A stretch of 63,953 bases of DNA, filler included, from Nemertoderma westbladi (taxonomy: Eukaryota > Animalia > Xenacoelomorpha): assembly GCA_032718475.1 (NCBI GenBank). It is 4 parts of 4 records of this genome, joined end to end, with 100 filler letters (N's around TTAATTAATTAA, not from the genome) between each part and the next. Parts side by side here need not be neighbours in the genome. Positions count along the whole stretch, not along the records: positions 1 to 23,290 come from JAUCBJ010001845.1; 3 more parts are not named here. One strand, given 5' to 3'. A program made the translations under genes and the position numbers. Shown here in pieces: positions 1,836 through 47,511 of this stretch (positions within the stretch are counted from its first letter, which is position 1; each line of letters starts with the position of its first letter). The notes below the pieces were generated by a model. It was not told the origin of the DNA. It did not search any database and saw nothing but the letters and a program-made list of their open reading frames with translations.

Positions 1836-3583
1836 ACTACTAGGATCGGCATGCTGCATTGCAGCTGCATTTTTAAGAATGCTGTGCCGGCTTGTCAACA
1901 AAATTGCACCGCCACAACTCCCTATTACCCATGACATTTGCTAGATCATCCGCATCTTTAAGGCCAGTGTCCTTTAAGATGCGTCTCAAGAAAGTCATGG
2001 GCTGTCCACCATGCTTATTCACTCCATGAGGCTGCCAAAGTACAAGATTATGCACTGGCTGGTCCTCACGGCGAAAGCAATGTCCTGCAAAGCGGAGGCG
2101 ATTTTGTTCTAGTGTCAAGCTTGGGGGAACCAATGAGACACCTCCAATGTTATATAGTGTCTGGTTGGAGATGTGTGCATTGTACTTGACACAATGAACC
2201 CGGCGTAGCATTCTTGTGAATGTGCCATCCAGAGATTTGGTGTCCTCAGCAGTTAGAGCCCAGCATGGACTCCCGTAGAGGAGTACTGGAACTACTGCTG
2301 CTCTAAATAATCGGACCTTAAGTTTCCGAGTAATTCTCAGTGACTTCCAAATCCTGGAAAGCCTATTCAAGGCTGCCCATGCCTTTCCCTTACGTATTCG
2401 AAGGTCCTCACCTGACTTCCGGATCCATGATCCCAGGTAACAGAAGTCGTCCACATGCTCAAGCATACCATCCTTTGAGCTTATGCTCATCCGATCAGAG
2501 ACTTGCTGAGGACTTTCAAAGTTAACTGTCAGAATTTTGGTCTTTCTGGAGTTAATAAAAAGACCAACACTAGAAGCAGCATGTTCTAATGAGCTGAGGA
2601 GCCGTTGGGCTCCCTCTAATGATTCTGAGAGTACTCCTAAGTCATCAGCAAAGTCTAGATCAGTTAGGTACTTGGCAGGATTTCCTCGACTTCTGGAGCC
2701 AGTAGGTGGAGTTATCATCACCCCATCATCATTATAATGATCTAAGGACATGCGTAGAACATAGTCAACCACAATAATGAACAAGAATGGTGCAAGTGTG
2801 TCTCCTTGGAGGACGCCCCATAACACTTCAAATGGTTCTGTGTCACCGTCAACAGTAGACACAAATGTTGTCGAACCATCGTATACTGATCTGATTGCTG
2901 CAATAATTTCATCAGGAATCCCATATAATGAAAGTATGCTGAACATACGTGAGCGAGAGACTGAATCAAAGGCCTTGAAGAAGTCAACAAAGATAACAGC
3001 CAGATGCCTGTCTTTCTTTTTTGATAACTCTTCAATTATCCTTCTAAGTGCCAAAATGGGCTCCATGGTCCCACGACCTTTACGGAACCCATTCTGATTT
3101 CCACGGAGCAGTCTCTCAATGGGATCCCTGATGCGATTTAATAAAATCCTATTGTATAGCTTTGCAGCAATCGAGATCAATGAAATTCCCCGAAAAGAAC
3201 CATAGAGTGTTAGGTTGCCCTTCTTGGGAACTGGCACCAACTTATTTGTTTTCATCTCTTGTGGGACTCTTGTTGTTCGGTACATGTCTACTATGATGGG
3301 ATAGATGAGCTTTAAACACTCAGGTATTTTAAAGACCTCAGGGGGAACACCATCTACTCCACTGGCACGATTGGTCTTAATGCTCTTTGCAGCAGCCTTC
3401 ACTTCTGCAAAGGAGATATCGCCAATGGGAATATCTGGGAGTACAGACTCAGACACTTTTACTTCTATAAAGTTATCAGGCAATACCCTGTCATTATTGA
3501 GGAGCTTTTCAAAGTGGGCTTTCCAACCATTGAGGCGATCGGCTGGTGATTCAGCCTTAACCTTGGTGGTTGGGTTGGTATTG
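1836..3583 (-). mobile_element. 5'-truncated RTE-type non-LTR retrotransposon
   Basis: 14-bp TSD AACCGAACAATACT at 1822-1835 and 3584-3597. Short (TAG)n 3' tail on the minus strand, very short 3' UTR, open RT frame. Confidence 0.92.
1873..3583 (-). CDS. LINE reverse transcriptase (ORF2 C-terminal part, endonuclease lost)
   Basis: Uninterrupted frame with RGISL, QNGFR, FVDFFKAFDSV, GVLQGDTLAPFLF, DLDFADD, FCYLGS. The N-terminal residues of the ORF-track call (3584-3627) are read-through into host BEL sequence. Confidence 0.9.
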
Positions 3584-3993
3584 AACCGAACAATACTGGT
3601 ACCTGGACTGCATCGTCTTTTCAACACGTGAACTCGATGTCCCGAAGGTTTCTCTTATTGTCAGCATGGACTGTCCGACAGCCAATGAGAGACTACAAAC
3701 TATCTTTGGTGACGATAGAGAGCGAGATCCGGTAGCTATTCTAATGCCATTCGGATGGATGCTCAGTAGCCCAATAAAGACAAAGATCCCATTTAGCATA
3801 TCCGAATCCTTAGGGTGCATCTTTGCTGGGACGATGAGAAATGTAGAAGATGAAGGAGCGGAGGAACAGCTCAAGAGGCTGCTATGGCAGGATTTTGAGG
3901 GATTAAAATATATATTGGTGTGGGAACCTCAGTGGAGGATAAGCAGGCGCAGGAGAGTGTCAGGAGGTCAATGAAGTGTGAGGGGGGGGGGGA

Positions 3994-5093
3994 GTGCAGT
4001 ACACCATAGGCATGGTGTGGAAAGAGCCGAAGTTTCCCCTTCCGAACAATAGGAGGATGGTCGAGATAAGACTCCAGAAATTAAAACAAATGCTTAAACA
4101 GAGTCTGGAGAAAAAAGACTATATACAAAAAATAATAAAGAAGTATGTAGATCAGGGGTGGACCGTGGAACTACCAGTAGACGAACCCGACACCAACAGA
4201 ACTTATTATCAGCCACTTCATGTGGTCCTAGATCCCAAGAATGGCAAGCTAAGGATGGTAGTCGACACTTCCACTAAGACAAACGGGAAGTGTCTCAATG
4301 ACTATCTGTTAGAAGGCCCCAATATATACAACTCAGGAATTGAGGTCTTGTTGCGATTCAGGAGAGGGAAACATGCCTTCACATGTGATATAGAAGGGAT
4401 GTTTGACCAGGTTCGAGTGACGGAGGAGGATAGCGACATCCAGCGCTTCCTATGGTATGATGGTGATAACAAACTGTCAATTATACCAATATACAAGATG
4501 GTCCCCAAGAAGAGAGTACCAGTTAAATAACTGGGATCAAATCTTGGGATAGGAGTAGCACCCACCCCTACCCTCGGGTAGCAGCTATCAAAGGAGGAGC
4601 CTTTGGGTTGCCTCTGGCTTTGGCTGACTGTTTGCTTTTTTTTGCTTACAAGATGGTCATCCAGAACATAGGGGTGAAATCGTCTTAGTTTACTACAACC
4701 ATGGCGGTGAGACACGGTTAAGGCTAAGGAAACAGAGTATAGTAAGGAGGCGATTGATATGATTCGATACGGATTCTACGTGGATAACGGGATGGGTTCA
4801 GGGAACACCATTAAGGAGATCATCGAGACAGTCACGAAGTTCGCGACATCCTGAAGAAATCAGGATTCAACTTGACAAAGTTCCAGTCGAACTCCAATGA
4901 ATTCATGGAAGTCATAGAGGAGACGCAGCCGGAACTGAAATTGGATAAACCAATGACCACAAAAGAGCAAATTATGGTGGATAAAAGAGTAGAATCACAG
5001 CAGAAATCTCTTGGGATCATGTGGAATCGAGAGACGGATGAGTTGGAATATCAGCTAAGTCAGGAGGGTGCAGAGATCCAGACAAAGAGGTAG
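3994..5093 (+). pseudogene. BEL reverse transcriptase remnant
   Basis: LPNNR, KLRMVVD, CLNDYLLEGPN, LLRFR, DIEGMFDQV, QRFLW, and catalytic FYVDN at 4774-4788. Interrupted at 4504-4646. Confidence 0.9.
4504..4646 (+). mobile_element. Short retroposed insertion (SINE or LINE 3' end) inside BEL RT
   Basis: 12-bp TSD TACAAGATGGTC at 4492-4503 and 4647-4658. Internal hairpin CCAGTTA-AA-TAACTGG and a T-rich tail. Removing it rejoins the RT motif YKMV-IQNIG. Confidence 0.8.
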
Positions 5094-5116
5094 GACTAGC
5101 ATCTCCTTTACTAGTT

Positions 5117-5760
5117 ATGGGGAAACAAATACTTAAGAAGGTTTACAAACTCAAGGATGATTGGGATGTGGAGGTCCCAATAGAGATAAGTAAACAATGG
5201 GATAAATGGATGGGGGGCTTGGAAGATATGGGAACCTATAGTATGCCATGGGTATACTTCCCAGATGGAGATATGAGTAAGTTAGAATTACACATGTTCT
5301 CTGATGCATCCCTGGAAGCATACGGTGCAGTGCTTTATTTGGTGCAGTGAAAGGGGACTCACAAGCCCAGACTAGCGTTTAGTAAAGCGAGGTCGACACA
5401 ACCACATTCAGCATCAGTACTAAAGCTAGAACTAACAGCTGCGAGATTGGGAGAGCAAGCAACAGCATATTTGGTGGATACGATACCAAGTATAGTGGAG
5501 ACACACTATTGGACAGATTCCATGGTGGTACTAGGATGTCTACACAACGAGAAAATGTGCTATCCCATATTTGTAGCGAACCGAGTAGATGAGTTAAGAG
5601 CAACAACAGACCTGGATAAGTGGCACTACTGCCCAACTGACGACAACCCGGCGGACTTGCTATCGAGAGGGGTACAACGCCACGCTTTCTCGGGAAAGCA
5701 AGAGTTGTGGCAGCATGGTCCACAGTTCCTCAACGACAGGACAAAGTGGCCACCAATGAG
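5117..5760 (+). pseudogene. BEL RNase H region remnant
   Basis: LELHMFSDASLEAYGAVLYL, LKLELTAA, YWTDSMVVL, FVANRV, WHYCPTDDNPADLLSRG, LWQHGPQFL. Confidence 0.88.
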
Positions 5761-6119
5761 GAAGGTAGATCCAAAGGGAGAGGAAGTATTTATAGAGGTT
5801 GAAGGAAACAAATCAGAGGGGGTGGAGATATTTAGCCAGTTGGAGAGGGAAATCAATAAGACACTATCGCAACCTAAGACGATAGATTCGAACGATAACC
5901 CAACGGATAGGTTGCTCAGTTACAGCTCTAGCTGGTATAAGACGAAGAAGCTAGTTGCACATCTGAGAGCATATGGAGAATTCCTTAGGGGAGCCAGTAT
6001 GGGCGAGAAACGCAAACCTACCATGTACACCTACCATCTGGATGGAGTGGCCAAAGCCTTAATACGATATGAGCAAGGGATGGCATTCGGAGATGAAATC
6101 AAACTTATTAAGAACCAGC

Positions 6120-7191
6120 AATGACTCCGACAAGACAGCAGATTCCACATGCTGTCACCACAGCTGGAAAAGGATGGCATCCTAGTAATGAACTCCAGGG
6201 TAGCCAATAACACCAGTGTCTTAGTTACATAAAAGCCAGTAATAGTTCCCAACAAATCACCAATAGTCCACCAGATTATATGGGACACCCACAAGACAAT
6301 AATTCATGGCGGCACTAATGCAACCCTAAATGAGATCAGGAGGAAGTACTGGGTAATCCAACTTAGAAAGATGGTGAAGACAGTTGTGGCACAGTGCCAG
6401 ACCTGTCAGTGGATGAAGAAGGAGAAAGCCGAACAGGAGATGGCACTGTTGCCAACAACTAGGGTGAGACATCATGATCCACAATTTACACATAGCGGTG
6501 TGGACATGTTTGGTCCAATAAAGAGAAAGGTGATGCGACATACCGAGAAGTGCTACGGTATAATCTTCATATGTAACAACACGAGGGCTGTGGCGATAGA
6601 ACTGGCGCAGGACACAACGTCGTCGGCATTTATTAATGCATTAGAGCGATTCGTGACCCGATGAGGAAAAACGGTCGAAGTTCTTTATTCCGATAATGGC
6701 ACAAACTTCATTGGAGCGGATAATGAGTTGGTAGAGGCCTTCAATATTCTAGAGGGAGAGGATGTTAAAGGGGCGATGAGGAACCGCCTGATAAAATGGG
6801 AAAGGAGGACGCCATATGCACCGCATACGCTGGGTTGCATATAACGTCTGGTTAGAAGCTTAAAACGGCTGATGACGAAACTTCTCAATAATCATATGGT
6901 GACAGAGGATGTATTGAGAATGGTGCTGGCGAAGTGTGAGGGTAATTAACAGCCACCCACTGTATCCCGAGAATGATGATCCAGAGTTATTGGACATTCT
7001 GACACCAGCACATCTGCTTAGGGAGAGGCCAGCAGAGATATATATGCGATATATTGATGAAGATGATATAAACTCGCGATAGAGTTGGATGGTAGCTAGG
7101 GCGATTGGTGCAGAATATTGGAAAAGGTGGATTCAAGAGTACCTACCAATGCTGCACACGAGGAACAAGTGGAGGAATAACCAATGGTAAC
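6120..7191 (+). pseudogene. BEL integrase remnant (continues at 15215-15420)
   Basis: H..H / CxxC zinc motif, GVDMFGP, SDNGTNFIG, W..W..EYL. Cut by the nested LTR element. Confidence 0.88.
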
Positions 7192-7809
7192 TGTGAGCGG
7201 ATTCAATTCCGTCCACCACCCCATACAGTTGGGAAGTGGCGTTTTAAGCAATATTGGGGAGTACGAGGTTGATTACAATCAACCTCGTATCACCCCCAAT
7301 AAACGGGGACAACAAACCCCCAAAGAGCCACACACAATAGAGGTTATAGGTCAAACCTCTTGGAGAGGGAAAGTGCAGCAGCGGGGGGGGGGGGGGGGGG
7401 GGAACACTCCCACAGAGGTGGGAGCCGAGAATTAGGTTTTTGGCCAATGGGGGGCAAGGAAAGTGCATCCGCTAGATACAGAGGCCACAAGTAGAGTTGG
7501 TAATCAATATATTACCGGTCAGTGTTTATGTCCTATTCAGTTATCTCAGTCACTTAGGGCAGTACGGTGACACTTTAATACCGTCACTGCAGTCACCGAT
7601 TACATATCAATATATTACCGGTCAGTTAGATAATAACCAACGCACTACTATCATAATCTGTGCTATCATACCTTGTATCGTATACTATATCATATATATT
7701 TGGAGTTTATCAATAATATCGGAAGAACGACAAACTCTTTTTCCCATTCGCACGGTGATGCTGATGCGTAAATAAATCAAACCGGTCGGAATCCTTTGAT
7801 CCCGTCACA
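7192..7809 (+). repeat. 5' LTR of nested element
   Basis: Direct repeat of 14612-15209 with TGTGA/TCACA termini. Scattered substitutions and small indels between the two LTRs. Confidence 0.95.
7508..7542 (+). promoter_or_regulatory. LTR core promoter (TATA-like + initiator), predicted +1 at 7539
   Basis: TATATTA at 7508 and TCAGTT at 7537-7542 (spacing -31). The same layout appears in the diverged outer LTR. Confidence 0.6.
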
Positions 7810-7834
7810 GTATTAAAGTCACCCAGTACGCCTA
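7810..7834 (+). promoter_or_regulatory. Non-canonical primer-binding site complementary to the element's own LTR
   Basis: GTATTAAAGT (7810-7819) is the exact reverse complement of ACTTTAATAC (7572-7581). Pairing extends with bulges to 7555/7834. No TGG. Confidence 0.65.
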
Positions 7835-7885
7835 GACAACTACCAGAACTGTAACTGCCAGCCACCAGAAAGAAAGCGATAAAGG

Positions 7886-10825
7886 ATGAGTGAAGCCCGA
7901 AACCTAGAGGGAGAGACGACACCGCCGCGGACCCCAGACGATACGAACGAAACGATCCGTGAGGCCGCGACGCAACGGTATCGACCCGCAACGCTGGACT
8001 CGCCAGAAAGAGACGATCCGGCAACAACCCAAGCGGAGGGCGGCCGTCTACCAGAATGAGAGGACGAGTCGACGCACGACGGCGGACGACGTACCGATGT
8101 CGCCGGCCAGCCACAGGCCGAAGGCAATGGACGGCCCACTGCAACGGCGACGGTGGGGCCGCCAGTACGACGCCGAACCAGGAGGGGAGGAGGAGAGGTC
8201 GGCGACGAGGACGTCGGAACCAGTGACCGGCTCCGACGCGCGAGAGAATAAAGAGAGGGCTGAGAGGGTCGCGAGAAACTTTAGAGAGTGTGAGGAGATA
8301 GAAATAAGGGAAGGAAAGGAGCGAGAGGCGAGCGAGGCGAAAGAGGCGAGCGAACGTAAAGAGCGAGGGGCGAGAGAGGAGAGTGAGCGTAAAGAGTGTG
8401 AGGCGGAGCGAGGCCGCGCGGCCGCGAGGCGGCTTGAGAGGATTGCGAGGGAGGCGGAGTTGGCCGAGCAGAGTTTGCAAGAGGATAGAGAGAGGGAGAG
8501 AACGGGAAAGCGTGTGTGGGATGATATGCATGCCCGGTTGAGGGGGCTTATGCAGTATCAGGTCAAACAGAAGCGCCGATTGGAACTGGCGCGGTTGGGG
8601 CTGTCAGAGAGTGAGGCTGGCTCGGGTAGTGTTTACGAGGAGCCAGAAGTTATGGAAATGTTTGTTAATACCCCACTTACAGGGACCGGACGACAGACCC
8701 AAGACTGGTGTAACCATACGGGTGGGGGGGGGGGGGGGGGTAATAATAATACGTTAGAAAACGTTAATATTAATAGTACCGTAGTGGATAACCCTAATCA
8801 AACTTTCATTGCAGGAAATAATATTTTGCCCGATAATAGTAATTTAAATCTGAACGATCCTAATTTAAATGTAGAAAATAATTCAAATAATCTAGATTCG
8901 AATTTACAAAATAATTCAAATAATTTAAATACGCAAGATAATCTAAACAATAATTATAATTCAAACGAACAAAATAATCCCGATTCTAATTCAAATATAC
9001 AAAGTAATCTAAATAATTTAAATTCAGCACAAAATAATTCTAATAATTTAAATAATTCAGAAAATAATATTAATAATGGTGCTATTAATGTAAACGCGGC
9101 AAATGTAGGTGGCCCAGCAAACGAGAGCCTGGTAGGCCACGTAAACGGAGAAGCGGGGGTGAGAAACCCCGACGGGGGCCTGATAGGCCATGTAGTTAGT
9201 GCGCAGGGAGTGGCGGGGTTGAGTTAACCCGACGGGAGCCTGCCAGGCAACACAGTGATAGAGGGAGAGGCGGGGGTGGATAGACCCAGCCACAGTAGAG
9301 CTAGTGCGTCGACTCGAGGGGGGTGTAGAGGCGAAGTGAGAGATAGTGAAGTGATAGATGGCGAGTGGGGGGGGGGGGGGGCTATAGGAGCCCCATAACG
9401 AGAGATTAGCGGCGAGAGGGGGGGGGGGGGGGGCAGAGAGAGTCCCACAGGCGTCGGCGGATAATGCGCGGGGCAAATTAGGTGAACCGCAGCACCCGGC
9501 GATGGAGAATAGTAGGGGGATTACGAATATCCCCAGGGGCATGCGACTGGGTAGAGAGAGAGAGGTTGGCGTCGCGAGAGGGCGAGCGACGAAACGTCGA
9601 GCCCAGTCAGAAGAGGGAAGAAGAACAGTGGAGTTTAACCGGGAGGTCGATGAGAGATCTCACGAGCGGGGATGCTGCACTGCAGAGAGAAGAAGGGAAG
9701 AGAGTAGAAGAAGTGTCGTCACGAACGACAGGAGAGCGAGGACGGATAGTTAGCCGTCGGTAGTAGAGACGGAGTCGAAGAGTCGGTGGGGTCGAACTCC
9801 GGGAGATTGCCGTCGTCCTGGAGAAGCGCGACCTGACGAGGTGTACTATACACCGAGAGAGGGGTACAGGGCGTACCGGTATGAGGATGAAAACAGGAGA
9901 GGGGATCGAAGAGAAACTTCCCGACGGGATATATAGATGACAATCGAGGATACGGTAGCCGCGGGGAGAACTTCTTGGATTATTCGAGAAGGTTAAACTT
10001 CGATCCCGAGGGACACATACAGACTGCAGGACATACTGTAGGCCTTACTGCACATACTATAGGCCATGCTGGGAGAGATAATGTAGGCGATAGGGCAGCG
10101 CGGGCGACGGGATTAAACCCGGAAGTCGCGGAGTACATACCGGTAGGTAGGCTTATAGCAGTACCAGCACAACAGTATGACTATAGCATGCAAGGACATA
10201 ACATATATCCAGGGGAGGGGAGAGTTATTGCGGATAGGTGTATGGGCCCCAATATATTAACATCAACCCCAGTACCAAACATACCGGTGGGGGGGGGGGG
10301 GGGGGGCAAGGTGACATTCCCCCATCACAATATCAACAATATACTCAAACAGGAATAAGAACATCGAACCCCCTGGATGAGAACAGATCATGCGACACCG
10401 AAATATGGAGGGGGCCATTACCCCCAATGATATATCCGACGCAGAGGAGGGCAACAGATAGGCCGGGCGGACCGCACCCAACAGGAGAATCTGTACAGCA
10501 TCCATCGAACCCATTAGAGGCACAGGCGATGGGAATGGCTACATTAATCGATGCATTAAAGACCAGGATCGAGTTACCACCCGTAGAACCATTTAAATTC
10601 GATGGAAGTAGGCCGGAAGAATACCTGCAATTTCGGAGTATGTACAGCAATGAAATATTGACGAAGAACCTGACGCAGGCGGAGTGCCTAAAATATCTAC
10701 AGGTGTATACAGGAGGCCTAGCATACGACATCGTGAGGCAGTACCAGGGCATCAAGGTGGCCGAAGAGATAGGATTGATGACGATGCCAAGTAGAATGGC
10801 GGTAACAACCATCTCCAGTAAGTTA
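7886..10825 (+). pseudogene. Gag-like region of nested element (E/R coiled-coil, Asn-rich tract, gag core start, protease fragment)
   Basis: ORFs 7959-9227 and 10238-10936 (IELPPVEPFKFDGSRPEEYLQF...CLKYLQVYTGG). Homologous to 55.3-57.2 kb, with frameshifts at G homopolymers. Confidence 0.8.
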
Positions 10826-11337
10826 CCCTATAGGGAGTTAGTTAGTAAGATGGTACGTAGTACCGTTAGTAGAAGAGTTAGTAAGAGAGTACGTGTAGTA
10901 CCATTAGTAGAAGAGTTAGTAAGAGGGTACATGTAGTACCGTTAGTAGAGGAGTTAGTAAGAGGGTACGTGTAGTAAGAGTTAGTGGTAGAAGGGTATGT
11001 AGTATATAGTAAGAGTTAGTAGAAATTAGTTAGAAAGTTAGTAGAGTTAGTAGTGCTGTAGTTAGTAGTAATTAAATATTAAAATTAGAAATTAGACAAA
11101 TTATGGTAACAGTAGGTAAGATATTCCAGAATACAATTAAAGTAACTGACAAAAATTACAGAATTTAGTAAATTTAGCACTTTTAGGAAATAAAGGTAGG
11201 AAAATTAGGCAATAACCCAACATTCAGAGAGAGATAGGCCATTATCGAACCGTACAGACCATCCTAACTACATCACTCACTTATATTGTGCCTTGGCAAG
11301 GCCCCACCTTATAGGTGAGCGATCGGGAGAGTTCGAA

Positions 11338-12300
11338 ATGGCGGAGAAACTTGTCAGAAAGAGAAAGGCGGAGTTGGGAGGAAAGGAGATACTGGTGGAT
11401 TTCACCGAAAAGCATCTGGAAGAGAAGACGAGGGGATACTACGAGCGGTTAGAGAGGGGTCACAAAGCGCGAGCGCTGCAGGACCATTTCAGGGAGGTGC
11501 ACGAACAGCGGCTGGTCGGAACCTATGGGACACCGTCGCTAGACAACGCGATCTTCGAGCACTTCCACTACGTGGTAAAGGGAGACGAGGCGAAGTTCGG
11601 GATACCGAAGTATCCAAAGGAACCACCGAGAAAGGACTGGAAGAGGTTCGTAGAGTCCGTCAGCAGGGGAGGATACCTGGTCCTAGACAATGAGGGGACC
11701 GTGGAAGACGAGGAAGGTTCGAGAAGAGGGTCGGCGGGGTTGGCCAGAGCCATATTCCTACATTTGGCCCAGCCAAATGGGGATATATTCCTGTTTGATC
11801 TGGGAACGTATGGGAAGAAGAACGGGCCGAAGTTAAACCGGTTGCCAAAGGCGGTGCAGAGCCTAGTAAGAGAGAAGTCGACGATAAAGGTGGGATCGGC
11901 GATCTGCGACAACGCAGAGAGGATCAACGGTCCAGAGACCCCCAACCTCCTGGACATGCAAATGGTCTACATGGCTATGACAGCGCCAGGCGGGTTGGGA
12001 CTAGTAGAGAATGCGGGCCATTGTGGAGTGGTGGCGATGGGCCTGTTAATGGGGCTCATATGCCACAAGCCAATGGACTGGAGTAAATTCAGAGAGGAGT
12101 ACGGAGCGGAGTTGGCGAACTCGCTGAAGTGGGGAGCGAGACCGGGGAAGCAAGAGGTGTATCAATTGCGGAGAGGAGCGATAAAGGTATATCAGAGGCG
12201 ATATATCCTGCAGGAGGACTGGATAATGATAGGTTTGCTAAACCTATTCATGACCGTGGTTATCGAGAGAGAACCAACGGCATTTCTGCTATCGGGATGA
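11338..12300 (+). CDS. Extra ORF part 1: DEDDy (RNase D/WRN/EXD-like) 3'-5' exonuclease-like domain
   Basis: First ATG at 11338. LVLDNEG (ExoI DxE), IFLHLAQPNGDIFLFDL, LPKAVQSLVREKSTIKVGSAICDN, NLLDMQ and YQRRYILQED follow the WRN-exo/RNase D motif order as recognised by eye. Confidence 0.65.
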   Translation: MAEKLVRKRKAELGGKEILVDFTEKHLEEKTRGYYERLERGHKARALQDHFREVHEQRLVGTYGTPSLDNAIFEHFHYVVKGDEAKFGIPKYPKEPPRKDWKRFVESVSRGGYLVLDNEGTVEDEEGSRRGSAGLARAIFLHLAQPNGDIFLFDLGTYGKKNGPKLNRLPKAVQSLVREKSTIKVGSAICDNAERINGPETPNLLDMQMVYMAMTAPGGLGLVENAGHCGVVAMGLLMGLICHKPMDWSKFREEYGAELANSLKWGARPGKQEVYQLRRGAIKVYQRRYILQEDWIMIGLLNLFMTVVIEREPTAFLLSG

Positions 12301-13879
12301 CCCCTGAACTACAGAAGAGCCTTCAAAGTGACTTTCGAGGGTCTGGTAGACCACCCGGGGCTGAAGCTGCCGATATCTAGTAGACAGGGAGGTGGATACG
12401 CCATATCAGAGGTGGGAGCAGCTAGAGGCGGATAGACGAGAGGCGAAGCGATTGGAAGAAATTGCTAGACGAGAAAGGAGGGAGGCAGAAGAAAGGGAGG
12501 CGGAAGCTAGAGGAGAGGGCTACGGGTTCAAGGAACAGGCGGCCTTAGACGACCTACACTGGACATCAGGGAGTTCGGGTGAGTCTCTAGGGCGAGAATT
12601 GGGGTAGACGGTAGGATCACCGAAACAGTCAACATTGGGATTGCAGACGACGCCCATACCAGCGGGCGCCGAGGGCGATTTCGCGCACAGGAGGCCAGGG
12701 GGACTGGAAGGATGGAGAGTAACGGGCGAGAGCCAAGGTGGGAAGGGACACAGTGGATCCACCGGGATACCGGGATTGGAGCCACTCCCAGAGGAGGACG
12801 AGGATGACGACGAGTTCAGAGAGATGCCGCCCATCGGGAGAATCGGCCACTCAGACACGGACTGGGTTGGCGGGAGGGTGGTGACGGCCAGCGGGGCGAG
12901 GGCCTTCTGGGATAGACCCGGCAAGCGGGCCTGGGTGCATGAGGAGCCGGCGATGGATTTCGCGGGGAGCACCATCAGATTGGGCGAGCAACCGGGAACG
13001 GCACCACGGGTAGTATTCGGAGAGACGATGCCCGGACGGGGCGAGGAGATAGACGTGGACAGGGACACTAATGTCCAGAAGTTCGCTTACCAGCGACTCC
13101 ATAGACCGAGGAGATCGCTTGGGACGAAAGACGACGTGGGGCGGGAGGCATTGGTACTCGGCTGCGATTACTGCGGGAGGCAAACTCACCAGGAAAGGAG
13201 CTGCTTGTACCGATTCCAGAAAGGGACTAGCTGTCTCTACTGCCGCGAGTCGAGTCATAGGATGGGGGCGTGTCCACGGTTGCACAACCGGTGTTCTAAG
13301 GGCAACTTCCGGGGCACTACGGACGCCAGTGCGACTGGATGGACAACGAGGAGAAGTTTAGGATCTTCGAGGAGTGGGCCGATGTCGGCGCCATGACCCG
13401 GCAGCGGATGAAGGCCCAGGAATTCCGGAGGGGCTTCTTTAATATCAACCAGGAGGCCCACCTGGAAATCATCAAACAGAGACTTCCGTTTACATATCAG
13501 GAGGTGTCAACGGGCGTCGTATGCCGGAGTGATAAATACGCAGAGGTATTTGGACAGGTGGACGCCACAGAACCGGGGAGAGTTCAGAGATTTCTTGGCA
13601 GAGCATGTGCCGCGGGCTATGAAAGTGATCCTATGGGATGCCACTAGTGGGAAACAACAGGGCCATTCGGAGGAGCCACCCGTGAAGCGATACCGGGAGC
13701 TAATAACACCAGCGCCCAGGGAGTCGACGACGGGAATCAGTAGAGAGGTGACAGCAAGGATCAGGAACCTAAAAGGGGATAAGAGCAAGGGAGCGGCAAC
13801 GACTAGGAAACGACCGAGGGAGGAGGACGACGGAGGGAAGGAGTTGATATGGTTCCCAAAGTCAGGTGGAGCAAACTAG
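12301..13879 (+). pseudogene. Extra ORF part 2: coiled-coil, acidic linker, three CCHC zinc knuckles (frameshifted continuation)
   Basis: ORFs 12392-12607 and 12635-13396 share a frame. CDYCGRQTHQERSC, CLYCRESSHRMGAC and (across a 1-nt shift) CSKGNFRGHYGRQC lie at 13163-13332. Continues in 13339-13647 and 13529-13879. Confidence 0.65.
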
Positions 13880-14611
13880 AACTTAGATGTGGAGATGCCT
13901 GGAAGGCACCACATGTGAAGTAATACGAACTCCTAAGTGCAAATTTAATTAAAAGTACAATTAGTATGTACATATGTAATAATCATTAGTATAGTCACAT
14001 AGCAAATATAATCAAAGTAAGTACTATAGTCATATAACCTTTTCCAATTAGCTACTGGGACTGGGGACCAATTGACTATGACAGGATGAGGCATTAGACG
14101 ACTTCATACTTCTTGAGTGCGACGGCACAGGAGGGGAGGGTGAGGCTCGGCAGGAGTGAATGGGTTAATAGTAGACGAGAATAGAACGCGAGGAGAGAAG
14201 GCAAGTGCAATTCAAGTGTGGGGGGGGGGGGGGGTAAGAGGTAGAGTGAGGGACAAGGAGGTCCGAGAGTTAGAGTGGAAGTAGAAGAGAAGTAGAGGAG
14301 AATCAGGATGAGAGTGGAGAAGTTAGAGTCAGTCAGAGCGGAGTTAGAGTGGAAAGAGTAGTGGGGAGGTAAAATTGTGTGAGAGAAATCCACAATTGTC
14401 TTGACACGAGACGCCAGATGTCTTGGTGCGACATAGGTGAAGTTGCACCAAGAGAGGGTTGCAATATCATACCCATAGGGAGCGGCCTGGAAAGCCAGCT
14501 CCAAGAAAGAGAATTCCACCCCACACCCGATAGTAGATCAGGTTCCAGTGGAATTGAAGCGCACTCGTTGGTGATGCTATCTTCTCACCGGGAAGATAGC
14601 ATGGGGGGGAG

Positions 14612-15209
14612 TGTGAGCGGATTCAATTCCGCCCACCACCCCATAAAGTTGGGAAGTGGCGTTTTAAGCAATATTGGGGAGTACGAGGTTGATTACAATC
14701 AACCTCGTATCACCCCCAATAAACAGGGACAACAAACCCCCAAAGAGCCACACACAATAGAGGTTATAGGTCAAACCTCTTGGAGAGGGAAAGTAACAGC
14801 AGTGGGGGGGGGGGAAACACTCCCACAGAGGTGGGAGCCGAGAATTAGGTTATTGGCCAATGGGGGGCAAGGAAAGTGCATCTGCTAGATACAGAGGCCA
14901 CAAGTAGAGTAGGTAATCAATATATTACCGGTCAGTGTTTATGTCCTATTCAGTTATCTCAGTCACTTAGGGCAGTACGATGACACTTTAATACCGTCAC
15001 CGCGGTCACCGATTACATATCAATATATTACCGGTCAGTTAGATAATAACCAACGCACTACTATCATAAACTGTGCTATCATACCTTGTATCGCATACTA
15101 TATTACATATATTTGGAGTTTATCAATAATATCGGAAGAACGACAAACTCTTTCTCCCATTCGCACGGTAAATAAATCAAACCGGTCGGGATCCTTTGAT
15201 CCCGTCACA
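14612..15209 (+). repeat. 3' LTR of nested element
   Basis: Follows PPT GGGGGGGAG, repeats 7192-7809, and has a terminal hairpin CGGGATC-CTTT-GATCCCG. Confidence 0.95.
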
Positions 15210-15214
15210 GTAAC

Positions 15215-15420
15215 TGAAGAAAGGTGATTTAATAATCATGGCAGATGATATGTTCATCAACAACCAATGGAGGTTAGCCAGGGTAGTTGAGTGTTACCCT
15301 GGGGAGGACGGGATGATTAGATCCGTGGAGTTCCGGATTGGAGGAAAGATTGGGGCAAAGGATAGGAAGACCTACATGGGGGCGGTAGGGAAGTGTTGCC
15401 TATTGGAGGGAACACCCTAA
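15215..15420 (+). pseudogene. C-terminus of outer BEL integrase
   Basis: KKGDLIIMADD...WRLARVVECYPGEDGMIRSV resumes immediately after the TSD. Confidence 0.9.
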
Positions 15421-16382: not shown

Positions 16383-16917
16383 TGTTAGCGAATCCAATCC
16401 GCTGCACCCCACCCAGTGAGGAAATGGGGAACAAAGTGATTTACGAGTCACAGTTAAGTATGCAATATTATATCCAATATAATATTGCATACCAAGGAGA
16501 ATGTAGGGCAATATAATGCCAGCTTGGAGATAGATACCAACATATATCAGGGAAGAAGCTAGCATAGGGCCGGAGGAAATAGGGAGTGGCAAAGGGAAAA
16601 CCAAGCAATGGCGGGACAGTACATGTGCAATTAACAGGTATCTATTGGTAGGTCAACATGTAGGTAGAAATGTATAATAAGCTTTCTAAGCAATGTGTAT
16701 AAAACCGTTACTCAATATTAATTATGTTCAGTTGGCTATTAATTACTGTGGAAGTCGGGCGGTTTTGACCATCGTCGCTAGTGCATACTGATTGTGCTGT
16801 TGTTTACAGGTACTTATATAAATCAGCTATTATTAACAACGATAAACCATAAACTTTTTTATTTACCGACTCACGGGACGCAGGTATATTACCTGCGCCA
16901 ACGCAGATCCCGTCACA
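16383..16917 (+). repeat. 3' LTR of outer BEL element
   Basis: Follows PPT AGAAGGGGAG. Starts TGTTAGCG and ends GATCCCGTCACA like the nested LTRs. TATAAAA at 16698 and TCAGTT at 16728-16733. Confidence 0.85.
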
Positions 16918-17610: not shown

Positions 17611-18007
17611 TTGCGTCGCAAATAGTTTAAATACTTCGTTTAAATAGTTCAAATTTTTTTTTGCACAAGTATGTGGTGGCCCTAGTAGGTCGGTCGTAGA
17701 TAAATTCCCGATCAAGATAAATTACACCATAATTGCTCTGGACTCACAAAAAAAGTCTTTATCTATCACAAAGATATCAAAGTTCAAGATTCCTGAACTA
17801 AACTACCATAACATATTTCTGCTTACATCTGTAGCAACAAATACAAGGTATATTATATCTACCATAGTTTAGTACAAGTGTAGATAAGTTATTAGACAAT
17901 TCTCTACCTCTTAATATACCATTGACATGATGTGTTATTGCGTTAATTGAATACTGTAGAACAGTTGTGTATTATTACGAAATAATTTCCAATATAACTG
18001 TGGGAAA

Positions 18008-20851
18008 ATGGAGGCAATTAAATATCTTATTGGGTTACTCGTTATGTTGGCATTGCTTTCTACCCCAATTCTTGGAAACTTGCGTCTACGGCGGTCACAG
18101 ATATCGACATCAAAAAATGGTTACATCAATGTACTAATTGCTATTGGTAGAGATGTTAAAGAAATGGAAAATCCAAATCTCATTGACAACATTAAAGAGA
18201 TTTTTACAAGAGCCTCACAACAAATGTTAGAATCAACATACCAGCGGTTGTATTTCAAGGAGATTTCGATTCTTATTCCATGCACCTGGAACCATACCTC
18301 TAGTTATCAGACACCAACCGACGAATCATTTAATACTGCGAATATAATTGTTGACAAAGCCAACCCTATTTTTGGAGACAATCCATATGTTAAACAGCCT
18401 GGTGGCTGTGCCCAACCTGGGGAATACATGCATCTCACACCTGGGTTGATTAATGACCACGAACTTTCATCTCTCCTCTGGGGTGACCTGGGCAAGATGA
18501 TTGTTCATGAATGGGGCCATCTTCGATGGGGTCTATTCGATGAATACCCACTAAATGATGGTGAACATTTCTACAGAGATTCCAATGGTGAAGTCCAAGC
18601 TACACGATGTGGGTTGAAGGTGGCGGGAGAGAGTCGACATTCAGAGACTTATGATCAATGCGAACTGGATCCAACAACAAGCCTTCCTGAGAAAGATTGT
18701 CGATTCTTTCCCTCTATGGATGAAGATGAGAACACAGCTATTGGCTCAATGATGTTTATGCAGTTCATTCCTGGGATTTATCACTTTTGCCATTCGGACC
18801 CTGATTTTGCAGATGATTTCCATAACAATGAATCTCCAAACAAACACAATATTCAGTGCAAAGGTGCTGCTGCCTGGGACATAATGGACTTTCATAAAGA
18901 TTTCTTAGGAGGTGTTAATCCACCAATCTCGGATCTCGATGATATCTCTATAACGCCAACATTCACCTTACTACAACCATATTCCAGGCGTGTAGTCCTG
19001 ATACTCGATGTTAGTACCAGCATGGATAAAGAGAATCGCATGGCCCGTATGAGGCATGCAGCAGGAAGATTTATATTTTCGTTCATAGAAACGGGAAGTT
19101 ATCTTGGTATAGTCGGATTTGCTAAAAGAGGTTCCACATTACACAACATTGTCGCAGTAAACAGTGATAGGATAAGAGAAGATCTAGCAAACAGTCTACC
19201 CACCAAAACCGGTTCGTATACTTCGATTGGTGCCGGTGTTAATGAAGCTATGAAAATACTGGGATCTACCACTAAAGGCACTCAATTTATTATCCTAAGT
19301 GATGGTGAAGAAAATACGAAACCAAACGTTCACACTTTACAATCTCAACTAGAAAGAAAAGGTATCTCATTAAATGCGATATTACTTGGCAATAAAGCAA
19401 GTAGAAAACTTGTGGATATGGTGGAGGACATGGGTGGAATGATATATTATGCCCAGGATGGTTCTGATAGTTCTGGATTAGATGATGCTTTCTCTTCATT
19501 AATTACCAATAATCCATCATGTGATGGATCCCCCGTGGTGCATGTTACATCAAATCAATATTTACCAAGTTCTTCATCTCGAAGTAAACGTAACATTCGT
19601 AATGTATTCCATGTTGACAAATCATCAGCAAAAGCGGGCTTGCAGTTGAGTTTTTATTGGTCGGAGGGATCTGTGTCCGTATCAGTTACTGTATACAGGC
19701 CATCAGGAGTTGCTATATCTGACACTGGTAGCCAATATGTTTACAAGAATGGCAATTTCAAATATCTAAGATTTAGCATTCCAGATGCCGAAGAGGGAAA
19801 GTGGTCTTATGACCTTAGCAATCCCACTGGCAAAAATCAACAGGTTAAGATAACTATTCTTACTGAAAGTGATAAGGGGAAAGGTAATGAACCAATTACC
19901 TTGACAGGAAGGACAAACCGGGCAACTATCACTTATAATGAAAACGGTATTGGTGGCAGCAAAATAATACCTACAGTATATGCGGATCTCAGCCAAGGTG
20001 AAACGCCTGTCCTCAACGCAAATGTCATGGCTAACATTGAAGGCGCTGGAGAAATAAAGCTAATTGACAATGGTGCTGGGGCTGATATTACAGTTAATGA
20101 TGGAATATATTCAGCTTACATAACTGGTATACGTAAGAATGGGCTTTACACCATTCAGATATATGCAGATAACTTAAACAATACAGCTAGTATTCCTCAA
20201 GATACGGTCAATAGACATAGAGGTAAACGATCTGGTTCGCTCCCAATCCCTACAAACCATGATGGCACTGACGAGTTCGCATTAGAGTCACTTGGTGGCT
20301 TCTCCCGGGAAAGTAATATTGAAGCCTTTGAGATCACTGGAATACCTGGAGGGACCAATGATCTGTATCCACCATCCAGAGTCACTGATCTCAAGGTGAC
20401 GGGTGTATATCCAAACAACAAGACATTCGAGATAACCTGGACGGCCCCTGGCGACGATATGGATTTCGGAAGAGCCAATCACTATGTGATCAGATATTCA
20501 CAAAATGTCACCGCTATGTACACTGACTTTGATAAACAGAGTATTATTAAAGAAGAAAATGTCTTTATTGGCAATTTAAGTTCTCCTTCTAAAAGTGGAA
20601 ATCTCGAAAATTTTATGATAGAAATACCAGATGGTTTACCTGGCAACCAGGTATATGCGCTGTCATTGGTTGCCGTGGATAACGCTAAGCGTGTTGGTGA
20701 AGTAAGCAATGTCGTATCTGTTCCGTTAGTAACTGTGGCAACAGGAGCAAATATTGGTTTGATTGTTGGGCTTATTGTTATGTGCGCGGTGATTGCCTGT
20801 GCTGTCGGAATTGGAGCCTGGTTTATACTACGTCGGCGCATAGGGCAGTAG
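18008..20851 (+). CDS. CLCA: Calcium-activated chloride channel regulator (CLCA) family protein, single-exon, type I membrane
   Basis: 947 aa with signal peptide, zinc-metalloprotease VHEWGHLRWGLFDEY, Cys-rich region, VWA MIDAS DVSTS / LSDGEE, DNGAGAD...DGIYS, FnIII (PPSRVTDL, WTAPGDDMDFG), and a C-terminal TM helix followed by RRR. AATAAA at 21263. Confidence 0.95.
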   Translation: MEAIKYLIGLLVMLALLSTPILGNLRLRRSQISTSKNGYINVLIAIGRDVKEMENPNLIDNIKEIFTRASQQMLESTYQRLYFKEISILIPCTWNHTSSYQTPTDESFNTANIIVDKANPIFGDNPYVKQPGGCAQPGEYMHLTPGLINDHELSSLLWGDLGKMIVHEWGHLRWGLFDEYPLNDGEHFYRDSNGEVQATRCGLKVAGESRHSETYDQCELDPTTSLPEKDCRFFPSMDEDENTAIGSMMFMQFIPGIYHFCHSDPDFADDFHNNESPNKHNIQCKGAAAWDIMDFHKDFLGGVNPPISDLDDISITPTFTLLQPYSRRVVLILDVSTSMDKENRMARMRHAAGRFIFSFIETGSYLGIVGFAKRGSTLHNIVAVNSDRIREDLANSLPTKTGSYTSIGAGVNEAMKILGSTTKGTQFIILSDGEENTKPNVHTLQSQLERKGISLNAILLGNKASRKLVDMVEDMGGMIYYAQDGSDSSGLDDAFSSLITNNPSCDGSPVVHVTSNQYLPSSSSRSKRNIRNVFHVDKSSAKAGLQLSFYWSEGSVSVSVTVYRPSGVAISDTGSQYVYKNGNFKYLRFSIPDAEEGKWSYDLSNPTGKNQQVKITILTESDKGKGNEPITLTGRTNRATITYNENGIGGSKIIPTVYADLSQGETPVLNANVMANIEGAGEIKLIDNGAGADITVNDGIYSAYITGIRKNGLYTIQIYADNLNNTASIPQDTVNRHRGKRSGSLPIPTNHDGTDEFALESLGGFSRESNIEAFEITGIPGGTNDLYPPSRVTDLKVTGVYPNNKTFEITWTAPGDDMDFGRANHYVIRYSQNVTAMYTDFDKQSIIKEENVFIGNLSSPSKSGNLENFMIEIPDGLPGNQVYALSLVAVDNAKRVGEVSNVVSVPLVTVATGANIGLIVGLIVMCAVIACAVGIGAWFILRRRIGQ

Positions 20852-29274: not shown

Positions 29275-32089
29275 TCGAGACATTTAAAAATTGTGGTGCT
29301 ATAAGTATCTCCGCCGAGGTTTCACATATGCGTGGGTCGCCTAGAACCCGGAACATCCATATCCACCATCAAAAACAATCTCACTAGCAGGAACATCGAA
29401 GTTGATCACGTGTTTAACATAACCCCTCTAACTGTAATCCTAACCAGAACGACTCCCAGCCACTGACACCCCAATGTGAGGTCTTTCACATTGTGTGCCC
29501 CACCTCAGCAGCTGCCGACGCTGTTTACACACCGAACTGCTGGCCAAGAGGTACAACAATTAGACGACACCTTCTTGGAGAAGAAGACAGAACCAACCTA
29601 AAATTAAAGTTGCAACCCGCTCATAAAGTGGATTGACACAACCAGCTGTTTGACTGGTCTCCCCTGAGGCAACATTTTCCCCAGAGACTACTGTTTCCCC
29701 TGAGACTATTATTTCCCCTGAGACTGCTGTTTCCCCTGAGACTACTTTTTTTCCCTGGGACTGTTGTTTCCCCTGAGACTACTGTCTCCCCTGAGACTGC
29801 TGTTTCCCCTGAGACTGCTGTTTCCCCTGAGACTGCTGTTTCCCCTGAGACTGCTGTTTTCCCTGAAACTACTGTCTTTCCTGAGACTGCTGTTTCCCCT
29901 GAGATTATTATCTTCCCTGAGTCAACTCCTTTCAATGATACTATGGTTTCCCCTGAGTCTACTGTTTCCCCAGAGACTACTGTTTCCCCTGAGTCAACTC
30001 CTTTCCATGAGATAGGGGTCTGCCCTGAAACTACTGTTCCCCATGAGACCACTGTGTTCCCATAGACAACTTTTACCCATGAGACTACGTTTTCCCTTGA
30101 GACTATGTTTGCCCCTGAGACTACTATTTCCCCTGACACTATTGAGTTCCCAGAGACTACTGTCTTCATTGAAACTACAGTTTCTCCTGAGACTACCGCC
30201 TTCCCTGAGATTATGGTTGCAGATACAGATATATCCAAAGGCATCAAACACCGAGTGAAATCTTTGAGGATGCAGATGTCTTGCTTCTAACTGAAACACT
30301 ATGCGACGTTGATGTAGTTGTTAAAATCTCATATTATCCATTCATCCAACCAGTTAAGAAGTTACTTCGCGGCCAGCCAAGATGATTACATCATCTTTCA
30401 ATACAATACATCATCATCTTACAAGATTTCATTGGAGGCCTGATGATTCTTAGTAAACCAGAACTAAACCCAAAGTTTATTAAATCAACAGCTGCTTATA
30501 TAGTTGTTGAGACAAATTGCGCCTTCTTTTTAGTCTTCCACTTTACACCAGATACACCTCTTGAAGATATATACTCATGGTAAATCCTTCCTATTCTTGT
30601 AGGTTTATATAATGTGTGCGTAAATGTTGGGTCCTTACCTTCATCCTGGAAAACAAACATAATTAAAATACTCTACAAGGGTAAAGGAAGCCCAACCTCG
30701 CCGGAAAATTATAGAGGTATTGCCCTCATCTCAACCCTACTAAAGATCTTGACAACTGTAATAAACAAATCTCTCTCACATCAATCACTGGCTTCCCGAG
30801 GAACAGTTTGGAGATTTACCAAGGGTAAATCAACGCTTCAGGCACTGAGAAAACTGTTAAACGATGTGTCTTCAACATTGCGAGGAGATGGAGACTCCCA
30901 CGTAGTATACGCGGTGTTCGTTGACTTCAGGAAAGCTTTTGACTTTGTCAATGAATCAATCCTACTCTATAAAATGTACTACTCATTCGGTATTCAAGGC
31001 AATTTGTATACATTGATCCAAGACCTCCTTAGAAACTCCATTCGAGTCTATGACGGAATTAAAAACTCCAAGTTGTTAAATCAACTTCGCGGTATATTAC
31101 AAGGAGACTGCTTCTCACCAAGTTGTTTCCTGATTTTTATCGCTGACCTCGCCATAGCTCTTCGCCACATCTCTGCGATCATAAAATCTATATTTTTCGC
31201 AGATGACTTGGTGATATATTCCTCATGTCGTGATGACATCCAGTGCGCTCTTAACACACTACACAACAATGGAACTCAACATCAGCAAAACTAAAATTCT
31301 AAAGTTTAGAACGGGCCTGTCGACTCGCGCATCTGGATAAATTTACATATGGCGGGAAAAGAAAACTATAGATATATGTAACCAGTATGAATACTTGGGG
31401 GTTGTACTACAGCCAACATTATGCTTCACAAAGCACTTAGATCAAAAGAAGCAGAAATGCTTCGCAATTATTGGGTGTCTTCCAAATCTCCAGCTCTTGT
31501 CCATTGGAACTGGAATAAAAATATTGGAAATGAAGATCATGCCTTGTGTGACATACGCCTTCTCGGAAATCGCCAAACACTTCACCGTTGGCTGGGGTTG
31601 CAGAAAAATTCCTCTACTACTCTAGCTCTAAAATTAACTGACTGCAAAACACTCATTGAAGATCTAGCAACTAAAACTCCAACTTTGTTCGACCCTGAAG
31701 TTTTGCTGAAATATAAGCAGTACAGACTCGGGCGGGAGGAGAACTTCATCTCAATGGGTTACTCTCATGGCCCAGGCTTCAATTCAAATGTCTGGAAAGG
31801 CTCAATGCAGTCGAACAGACACCTTGTCACCCGGGTAACCTCTCATGGTTTCCATTTTAAACTCTGCCTTGATCGAATGCCGTTTCATGAACTGACAGAT
31901 GCATGCCGGTGTCATCAATTCTGCGGTGATTCAGCACAGGATAGGTATCATGTCCTACTTTGCAGCAGCTGCCTCTCCATCGCGTCCATCTCACAGACAT
32001 AACTCTCTATCTAATTACCGTAATGTATACTGTTTATAATGTTATTTTATTTCATAGTAATAAAATTCAATAAATTCAATAAAAAAAAA
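29275..32089 (+). mobile_element. Decayed non-LTR retrotransposon (CR1/L2-group-like)
   Basis: ORF1 C-terminal WPRG..IR motif (about 29540), endonuclease remnants (DVLLLTET, GGLMIL), RT 30614-31294 (YRGIAL, FVDFRKAFD, GILQGDCFSP, FADD), and a 3' AATAAA repeat plus A-tail. 5' boundary approximate. Confidence 0.8.
29660..30215. repeat. 18-bp minisatellite (CTGCTGTTTCCCCTGAGA-type)
   Basis: Homogeneous units around 29770-29860 with degenerate flanking units. Confidence 0.9.
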
Positions 32090-45569: not shown

Positions 45570-47511
45570 GGTTAAAGAAACTTGTTAAAGAAACCTCCTA
45601 AACATAACCCGGATAACTATCGTCCCATATCCCTTACTTGTATCTTGGCTAAGGTCTGTGAGAAGTTTATTCGTGATGCACTTATTTGTCATTTTGAAGG
45701 AAATAATATTTTCACTGATGCCCAGCACGGAGCTCGTGCTCACCGTTCTACAGTTACACAGTTACTAGAAGTAGTGGAAGACTTCTGCAACTTTGTAGAT
45801 GAACTGCATTCTCTTGGAGCTGATGTTGTGTATCTCGATCTAAGACGAGCCTTTGACACTGTCTCACACACCCTGCTACTGCATAAATTAGAGAGTTATG
45901 GTGTAAAGGGCAACGTTTTAGTTTGGATAGGTAACTTTCTTACTGGGCGTACCCAAACTGTTAGGGTTAATGGAGTATTAAGTGGGACTCGAATGGTGAC
46001 CAGTGGCGTTCCTCAAGGGACTGTTACTGCGCCAATATTATTCTTGATCTTCGTTAATGATGTTCCTGATATGATCACATCTTGTTGTAAGATATTTGTA
46101 GATGATACGAAAATATACAGACAAATTTCTAGTACGGACGACACCAACTTCTTGCAAGCAGACTTAAACCGGCTTGTTGAATGGGCAAACAAATGGCACT
46201 TACAGTTTAATTTTTCAAAGTGTAAAATACTTCACCTTGGTCGTAGAAATCCATCAACGCCATACTACATGTCTAACACAGTTCTGGATGCAGTATGCGA
46301 AGAGAAAGACCTTGGTGTTACTTTTAGTTCCAATATGTCATTCTCCGCTCATTGTTCTAATATTGCTGCTCGTGCGACACGTATTCTTAACTTAGTAAAA
46401 CACACATTCACGTTTATGGAACCGATAATGTTTACCAAGTTATATAAGTCTATAATTCGTCCGCTACTCGAATATGGTACAGTTGTATGGTCACCGTATC
46501 TTCAAAAGGATATCGAGCACATAGAACAAGTGCAACACCGCGCAACCCGTATGGTACCTTCACTACAGCATCTGTCATATGAGGAGCGTCTTCGTTCACT
46601 TAAAATACCGACACTGATTTACAGACGAGCTAGAGCGGATATGATATCAACATACAAGTTTGTTCACAAACTTGATAACGTAGACTATAGTAACTTTTTT
46701 GAACTCAGAAGCCAGCGTCACTCATATTCGACAAGAGGTTCATCCTGTCATCACTGACATTGTACAAACGAAACACCGCGGGTCAACATCTGTTCCACAC
46801 TAACAGTTTTGCGTCTCGTGTAATAAACTTATGGAATATGTTGGATGAGAATGTTGTTAATGCTCGAGATTTTCATGGTAATCCTAGTGTAAACTTATTT
46901 AAAAATCGTCTTGATTGTGCCATGAAGTCCAAAATGAATATTTATAGTGATATACCAGTTAGACAAGTTGCCACTGCCCAGTTTACATTCCATCGGTACT
47001 TATATTAAATTAAATTTTTCTTTTGTATCATTGTAATTACAATTTTTACTTAATTAAATATCAGGTTCTTTGTTTTTAATATTTTCATATGAAGTGCACG
47101 GTATTTTTTATTATTTTTATTATTTTTTATTTGTTTTTTTTAATATTATTGCACACATCGAAGTTTTTACTGTATCGTTCTTAATAGAAACATTTTAATC
47201 ATAACGTGCCTTTTATGTTTATTTTTTATTGCAATATGTAAAATTATCAACATTGTGATTTTTACTTACAATCTACGTCGTATAATTTTGAACCCCACTA
47301 TCTGTTTATTGTTTATTTATGTTTGTAATATGTTATATGTTTGTACCTATAATGTATGTAACTTACCTGCAGTACTTCATAAAAGAAATATACGCATATG
47401 CGTAGAATCCTTATAGATTTGCCAGTTCATTGTGTTTTATAAGAATTTATGTGCTGTATGTATTAATTTTAATTTGCATTTGGCGTATTAAACTAAACTA
47501 AACTAAACTAA
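45570..47511 (+). mobile_element. 5'-truncated CR1 LINE
   Basis: RT ORF 45582-46757 (NYRPISLT, YLDLRRAFDTV, SGVPQG, FVDD, EKDLGV, RPLLEY..VWSP), C-terminal FASRVINLWNML, and (TAAAC)4 tail at 47489-47511. Confidence 0.92.

Follow-up and report, generated by a model that had tools for sequence, protein, structure and literature searches.

A decayed BEL/Pao retrotransposon of Nemertoderma westbladi with a primer-binding site complementary to its own LTR: a likely case of self-priming

The window analysed here, a stretch of 63,953 nucleotides (filler included) joined from four parts of the genome of Nemertoderma westbladi, holds a decayed BEL/Pao retrotransposon that lacks pol and whose primer-binding site (PBS) pairs with its own long terminal repeat (LTR). 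Judging from the sequence, its family likely primes minus-strand DNA with a 5′ piece of its own RNA and not with a tRNA. Such self-priming had been put forward in an original prediction from this one copy, and it is now supported by relatives of the element: an own-LTR match is found in 19 of 21 of those without a TGG at the PBS and in none of the nine of TGG type, with in-step changes between families.

A pol-less element nested in an older one

The element at 7192-15209 is an old, cut-down BEL/Pao retrotransposon of 8,018 bp, running from LTR 7192-7809 to LTR 14612-15209 (Table 1). It has TG..CA LTR ends, a target-site duplication and a polypurine tract, as BEL/Pao LTR elements do, and the 5′ and 3′ LTRs agree at 93.7% with gaps, differing by 18 substitutions in 597 aligned columns. 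Its gag matches the DUF1759-bearing (E 5.5e-8) reading frame at 56501-57391 at 77% on the amino-acid level over 149 residues and, on the nucleotide level, the second BEL/Pao fragment of the window at 79% over 1.67 kb; its own Pfam DUF1759 score is weak (E 0.18). That second fragment, at 55352-59363, carries gag and protease and then jumps to the post-integrase end. Protease, reverse transcriptase (RT), RNase H and integrase are all absent from the inner element, and with pol missing it is a non-autonomous derivative. Its extra reading frame at 11209-12300 gave no Pfam match, no homologues and no PDB hits, and its predicted model has a pLDDT of 32.5; an exonuclease identity was thus confirmed by neither homologue, PDB nor model searches and remains a lead. 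DEDDy exonucleases do occur as third reading frames in LTR elements of bdelloids, according to the accessible part of PMC5408684.

The inner element sits inside an older BEL/Pao element, near the end of the latter's integrase region. The pol of this host element shows Peptidase_A17 (weakly), Integrase_H2C2 and DUF5641, and its RT matches are BEL/Pao polyproteins. Both the inner gag and the host pol are of BEL/Pao type, which places the element outside the Tf1/sushi clade with its Ty3/gypsy chromovirus pol. The related LTR at 16383-16917, hereafter the sister LTR, most likely closes the host element as its 3′ LTR, and through it we infer that the inner LTR family is tied to a pol-bearing BEL/Pao element.

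Table 1. Features of the inner BEL/Pao element, its host element and the sister LTR, in window coordinates
Feature	Position	Strand	Basis or remark
Left target-site duplication, GTAAC	7187..7191	+	Identical 5 nt at 15210-15214
5′ LTR, 618 nt, TG..CA, terminal inverted repeat	7192..7809	+	LTR-LTR alignment
Identical 21-nt direct repeats (two) flanking the promoter-primer block	7503-7523, 7606-7626	+	blastn
Predicted core promoter: TATA-like TATATTAC at 7508 and initiator-like TCAGTT, predicted +1 at 7539	7508..7542	+	Motif scan
Predicted self-primer segment, perfect core 7572-7581	7555..7581	+	Duplex energy, shuffles, ensemble folding
Alternative hairpins at the core, arm 7565-7571 opposite either 7583-7589 or 7591-7597	7565..7597	+	Sequence
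Predicted polyadenylation signal, AATAAA	7771..7776	+	Motif scan, inferred role
PBS without TGG, complementary to own LTR	7810..7834	+	Sequence, shuffles, relatives
Broken BEL/Pao gag (stops, frameshifts), ending within a DUF1759-like region	7886..10936	+	Similarity
Extra reading frame, 363 aa, candidate 3′-5′ exonuclease (lead only)	11209..12300	+	Atlas 0.89 to a cluster that is 50% PF01612
Two CCHC-type zinc knuckles in extra reading frame 12608-13396	13163..13273	+	Translation; Pfam zf-CCHC_4 E 0.17; Atlas 0.88
Polypurine tract	14603..14611	+	Sequence
3′ LTR, TG..CA	14612..15209	+	10-nt core retained, single change in extension
Right target-site duplication, GTAAC	15210..15214	+	Pairs with 7187-7191
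Broken host-element pol (RT, RNase H region, integrase)	3982..7186, resumes 15215-15417	+	Pfam and RT similarity
Related (sister) LTR	16383..16917	+	Last 11 nt identical to inner LTR's; 3′ UTR and polypurine tract related

Several other observations were made along the window. Target-site duplications of the form GTnnC recur, as GTAAC at 7187-7191 and as GTGAC, GTACC and GTACC in three relatives (L078, L103, L106); other elements differ. An inverted repeat near the start of U3 (7245-7301) is present in all three LTRs and forms the deepest LTR bins in the read data. The window also carries three LINE-type RT stretches, a transposase of piggyBac type and a 65-nt tandem array (1873-3654, 30584-32002, 45576-46757, 61206-62654, 40830-43000), the first LINE-type stretch being inserted antisense in the host BEL element, and an uninterrupted 963-aa CLCA/VWA reading frame at 17960-20851, about 1 kb from the nested elements.

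Pairing between the primer-binding site and the LTR

Directly after the end of the 5′ LTR (7809) the window reads GTATTAAAGTCACCCAGTACGCCTA. The lack of a TGG at this place, on which the original prediction rested, extends over the first 25 nt, and because mature tRNAs end in CCA a canonical tRNA 3′-end PBS is excluded. The claim that the reverse complement of these bases matches LTR 7555-7581, perfectly so over the last 10 nt, also holds: 7810-7819 is the exact reverse complement of 7572-7581 and lies flush with the LTR end. Where self-priming is recognised by an own-LTR complement of at least 10 nt, 0-5 nt past the LTR, the inner element thus has 10 nt at offset 0. Dinucleotide shuffling of the LTR produced a flush match of at least 10 nt 17 times in 20,000, and 41 times in 20,000 when an offset of 0-5 nt was allowed.

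The pairing runs on to about 22 bp. The energy of the 25-nt duplex (-25.0 kcal/mol) was equalled in 6 of 2000 trials when the LTR was shuffled and in 8 of 2000 when the PBS was. With the 10-nt core held fixed, the extension is better than 982 of 1000 tail shuffles in the 5′ LTR and than 942 of 1000 in the 3′ LTR, where the position of 7567 carries a G>A change. A less favourable control is the ranking by duplex energy, in which the PBS stands no higher than 61st among 1356 internal 25-mers. Long bulged extensions of this kind are not the rule in the relatives whose match spans a splice junction, where one of 11 tested beat 95% of tail shuffles, and the extension may be a trace of primer copy-back. 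A splice-built primer was also sought in the window's own LTRs and rejected, the best match over any GT/GC-AG junction being 8 nt, which is shorter than the contiguous 10 nt.

The position of the primer within the RNA depends on the start site. The TATA-like box and the TCAGTT with its A at 7539, from which the start had been derived, are both present and 31 nt apart, and +1 at 7539 is a prediction. Further TCAKTY motifs turned up in the motif scan of the 5′ LTR at 7548 and 7624, of which the latter, if used, would place the primer segment in U3; the sole TATA-like/initiator pair spaced 31 nt is the one that gives 7539. In the sister LTR, TATAAAA and TCAGTT stand 32 nt apart, and since this block aligns near-equally at three places in the inner LTR (scores 34, 29 and 32, with 36 for 7584-7650), homology leaves the start site unsettled. 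The predicted AATAAA would leave about 190 nt of R beyond the primer for strand transfer.

Folding bears on a further claim, namely that the 10 nt can sit in the loop of a hairpin formed by 7565-7571 and 7583-7589. The hairpin can be formed on paper, with one G-U pair, and a role for it finds no support from folding. When the leader is folded by itself (7539-7620), the arm 7565-7571 pairs chiefly with a later repeat near 7591-7597, and with the PBS included both hairpins drop to a probability of about 0. The PBS/LTR duplex belongs to the minimum free energy (MFE) structure of 7539-7850, its first seven pairs having a probability of at least 0.99; the fold of the whole of 7539-7850 has z = -1.57, with 6 of 100 shuffles equally good.

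The 3′ end of the sister LTR is adjoined by GTATCCAAAGTC, which resembles the inner PBS and finds a complement of at most 5 nt in the sister LTR. This counts against self-priming; most simply it would be a target-site duplication followed by host flank, the 5′ end of the host element lying beyond the window. Apart from this, a strong acceptor-like site with GTAC behind it is present at 16809 in the sister LTR, 104 nt short of its end, as in the spliced relatives. No strong splice donor was found in it downstream of its initiator motif.

Relatives with and without a tRNA-type site

BEL/Pao relatives of the host RT number in the thousands, and the best of them share 34-47% identity with it. From these, 127 RT loci selected by likeness to the host RT were gathered (79 from metagenomes, 28 from MAG contigs and 20 further regions), presumably representing host-animal DNA, and the 30 with a definable 5′ LTR end were tested, several of these ends having been placed by eye from the terminal inverted repeat; the remaining loci had no definable 5′ LTR end, were near-copies (L108, L109, L120, L123) or were not inspected. 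Among the nine TGG-type elements none has an own-LTR complement of 10-12 nt, the maximum being 6 nt, as against 11 of 12 non-TGG elements in a first set and 8 of 9 in a second, L126, which starts GTGG, being counted among these 21 without a tRNA-type site. The rows include close kin (L002/L003/L006, L011/L015, L089/L090, L043/L073), so that the independent families are fewer than 21. The two non-TGG elements outside the 19 are L080, with only 8 nt, in which an 11-nt junction match with one mismatch can be seen by eye, and L084, with 6 nt, of which only 57 nt of the 5′ LTR are present in the sequence.

Fifteen of the 19 matches exist only across a GT-AG splice junction, with an intron of 76-1116 nt within the LTR, and four (L011, L043, L053, L073) are contiguous like that of the window's element. 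In the relatives, 0-3 of 200 PBS shuffles were as good as the real own-LTR match, and when PBSs were swapped between families the own score was never reached for the first set's 11 matches; the match of L066 is doubtful, as swapped PBSs score equally. PBS and primer letters change in step between families of relatives: the last three exon-1 bases and the facing PBS bases differ together between L089 and L090, and primer and PBS do likewise between L043 and L073. In L011 exon 1 runs directly into exon 2; the closely related L015 carries a GT-AG intron of 171 nt at this place (L011:1-183, L015:490-854; the exact junction was read by eye, as the aligner had misplaced the gap). The difference reflects either an exact loss of the intron or a contig assembled from spliced RNA. 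The PBS begins with a flush GT in 13 of the 21 non-TGG relatives, as it does in the window's element.

The two types of site also separate on an unrooted tree of RT, RNase H and integrase (455 columns), built with 36 rows (L080 and L091, which lack a domain, being left out) and then as a quick tree of 31 rows. One branch (94/97 with 36 rows, 96 with 31) keeps all the no-TGG elements to one side, another (97/100 and 94) divides all the TGG elements from the no-TGG elements together with the window's host, and one change between no-TGG and TGG suffices on the tree. The host pol forms a long branch (1.3-1.9 changes/site) that joins the tree between the two types, and the host RT is nearer to non-TGG elements (the first 20 of 37 tblastn hits). 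On this tree the window's lineage stands as a long branch beside the no-TGG group, of which it is at most a putative member.

Sequencing reads give a view of the family beyond single loci. Between 22 and 31% of words were found in three DNA runs from two studies. In run X1 the summed contig depth, which is not equivalent to copy number, is 3431-5808 at 7524-7591 versus 804 and 464 in the flanking bins; X2 and X3 show the same shape (X1 and X3 being one sample), and across three well-covering runs from two studies the excess at 7524-7591 is 3-13 times the flanking bins. This hints that the promoter-primer block is common to many subfamilies and has a wider spread than the sequence on either side. 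Among the best-supported 40 of 243 read differences none falls in 7572-7581 or 7810-7819, which carries no weight either way. The 22-nt LTR-end pattern yielded no loci in the metagenome and viral contigs searched, and RT searches of viral contigs found no relatives.

Proposed mechanism, alternatives and known systems

On the observed anatomy, complementarity and recurrence in relatives, the following course of events can be proposed. Transcription would start at about 7539, and +34..+43, together with a bulged extension on the upstream side, would pair with the PBS by fold-back. Cleavage of the RNA would follow directly behind the AC at 7581, probably by RNase H, by analogy with Tf1; the RT with its RNase H would come in trans from relatives that carry pol, for instance the host element. 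RT would then copy U5, continue through the 190+ nt of R that are left and transfer to the 3′ R, restoring the whole LTR, and the retained primer would be copied in plus-strand synthesis, so that the PBS is rewritten from the LTR and the match is kept. RNase H cleavage and primer retention are features of Tf1, whose primer is 11 nt, and are applied here by analogy. In most relatives the primer would arise when an LTR intron is spliced out; the element of the window has the contiguous form.

Beyond this family, we lean towards the view that a deep branch of BEL/Pao dropped tRNA priming in favour of self-priming, a third independent origin after those in Ty3/gypsy and Ty1/copia, and that its primer is mostly built by host splicing, so that only spliced RNA would be reverse-transcribed; contiguous members such as the window's would have come about after intron loss or primer relocation. 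The independence of the origin had been claimed against Tf1/sushi as the precedent. The claim fits the distribution over superfamilies, and in one respect it needs amending, as the accessible part of PMC6317226 shows that self-priming has also been proposed for TAR/Houba copia elements, so that Tf1/sushi is not the sole precedent.

Other explanations of the pairing have to be weighed against fold-back priming. An LTR-derived primer could act in trans, as a short transcript of its own (RNA of a solo or 3′ LTR that paused or terminated early), with no fold-back and cleavage of the genomic RNA. The predicted primer of about 43 nt, with 16 nt unpaired at its 5′ end, is longer than Tf1's 11 nt, LTR pieces are very abundant in the sequencing runs, and a hairpin lies directly after the primer core; the duplex in cis, on the other hand, is the predicted MFE structure with a core probability near 1, and in most relatives the primer invariably ends in AC at its 3′ side, in keeping with a defined cut, so that we regard priming in trans as improbable. 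The pairing might also be an RNA structure serving another job (packaging, dimerisation, translation control) or the leftover of a template switch, with priming done by something else, a reading to which a single decayed copy, the unremarkable whole-leader fold (z -1.57) and the overlap of the core with a motif like the repeated TATA-like unit of the inner LTR would lend themselves. Such a structure need neither lie flush with the LTR end nor replace the TGG, nor need it be seen again, at a length of 10-12 nt, in 19 of the 21 relatives, of which 15 have it across a splice junction, and we think it unlikely to be the explanation.

There is little reason to expect, finally, that a host tRNA half or another small RNA primes here and that the LTR match is chance or secondary, although half-tRNA priming exists in Ty1/copia (PMC6317226, accessible part) and a site for an external primer could be shared with the sister LTR, given the similar sequence that adjoins it. 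The tRNAs available for comparison were a small surrogate set of 57 distinct sequences from other contigs, of mixed and uncertain origin, not the host's own and with most Arg isoacceptors missing. Against this set the window's PBS reaches at best 6 nt of Watson-Crick pairing, versus 17 nt to tRNA-Lys for the control L115, and with wobble 9 nt to the anticodon loop of tRNA-Gln(TTG) at offset 3; three TGG-type controls (L101, L106, L119) found no partner among the 57, which marks the surrogate set as incomplete. The PBSs of non-TGG elements, moreover, vary by family and track their own LTR, and no tRNA or Rfam family matches the LTR. A tRNA-like sequence within the LTR was likewise considered and found unsupported, Rfam giving nine chance-level hits and no tRNA.

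Priming by the element's own RNA, if true for a large branch of BEL/Pao, would mean that self-priming arose in all three LTR superfamilies, and would bear on whether hairpin priming is ancestral or recurrent, a question discussed in the accessible part of PMC3601003. It would also tie reverse transcription to host splicing, with spliced and contiguous forms coexisting and so directly testable, explain those BEL/Pao elements in which PBS finders return nothing, make an exception to the definition of a tRNA-primed BEL/Pao family (PMC8742986) and presumably release the elements from control by tRNA fragments. No published report of self-priming in BEL/Pao was found in the accessible literature, and an earlier mention is possible in supplements, subscription journals, Repbase or GyDB. 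The accessible parts of PMC6934838, PMC8220671, PMC5443660, PMC2864245, PMC554778 and PMC8556966 do not report it, and the terms 'PBS', 'primer' and 'tRNA' are absent from PMC3118150.

The Belpaoviridae are described in the ICTV profile as primed by a host tRNA through an 18-nt PBS for tRNA-Arg or tRNA-Gly (PMC8742986). The window's element shares with them the DUF1759-type gag, TG..CA LTRs, 5-bp target-site duplication and polypurine tract, and its host element the Peptidase_A17, integrase H2C2 and DUF5641 domains; unlike them, the inner element has no 18-nt site for tRNA-Arg or tRNA-Gly (no TGG in 25 nt), no pol, and extra reading frames. In the TAR lineage (Houba, Osr-1) of plant Ty1/copia, self-priming was predicted from a match of at least 10 nt lying 0-5 nt past the LTR, by the accessible part of PMC6317226, and the window's element shows a match of the same kind. 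The TAR elements are plant copia with an unrelated RT, and no intron-built primer is described for them in that part of PMC6317226.

The closest likeness in the mode of priming is to the Tf1/Tf2 elements of S. pombe, Tj1 of S. japonicus and the Tf1/sushi and Tcn1 groups of Ty3/gypsy, whose PBS complements the 5′ part of their own mRNA (PMC4600332 and PMC6317226, accessible parts). As in the Tf1/sushi and Tcn1 groups, there is no tRNA site and 10-12 nt pair flush with the LTR end. Unlike the Tf1 group, the window's element belongs to another superfamily, its paired core is predicted at +34..+43 and not at the extreme 5′ end, it shows no pairing onward into U5, and its BEL/Pao relatives build the primer across a splice junction, self-priming here being a prediction. 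The element would most likely work like Tf1, yet it is not a member of Tf1/sushi.
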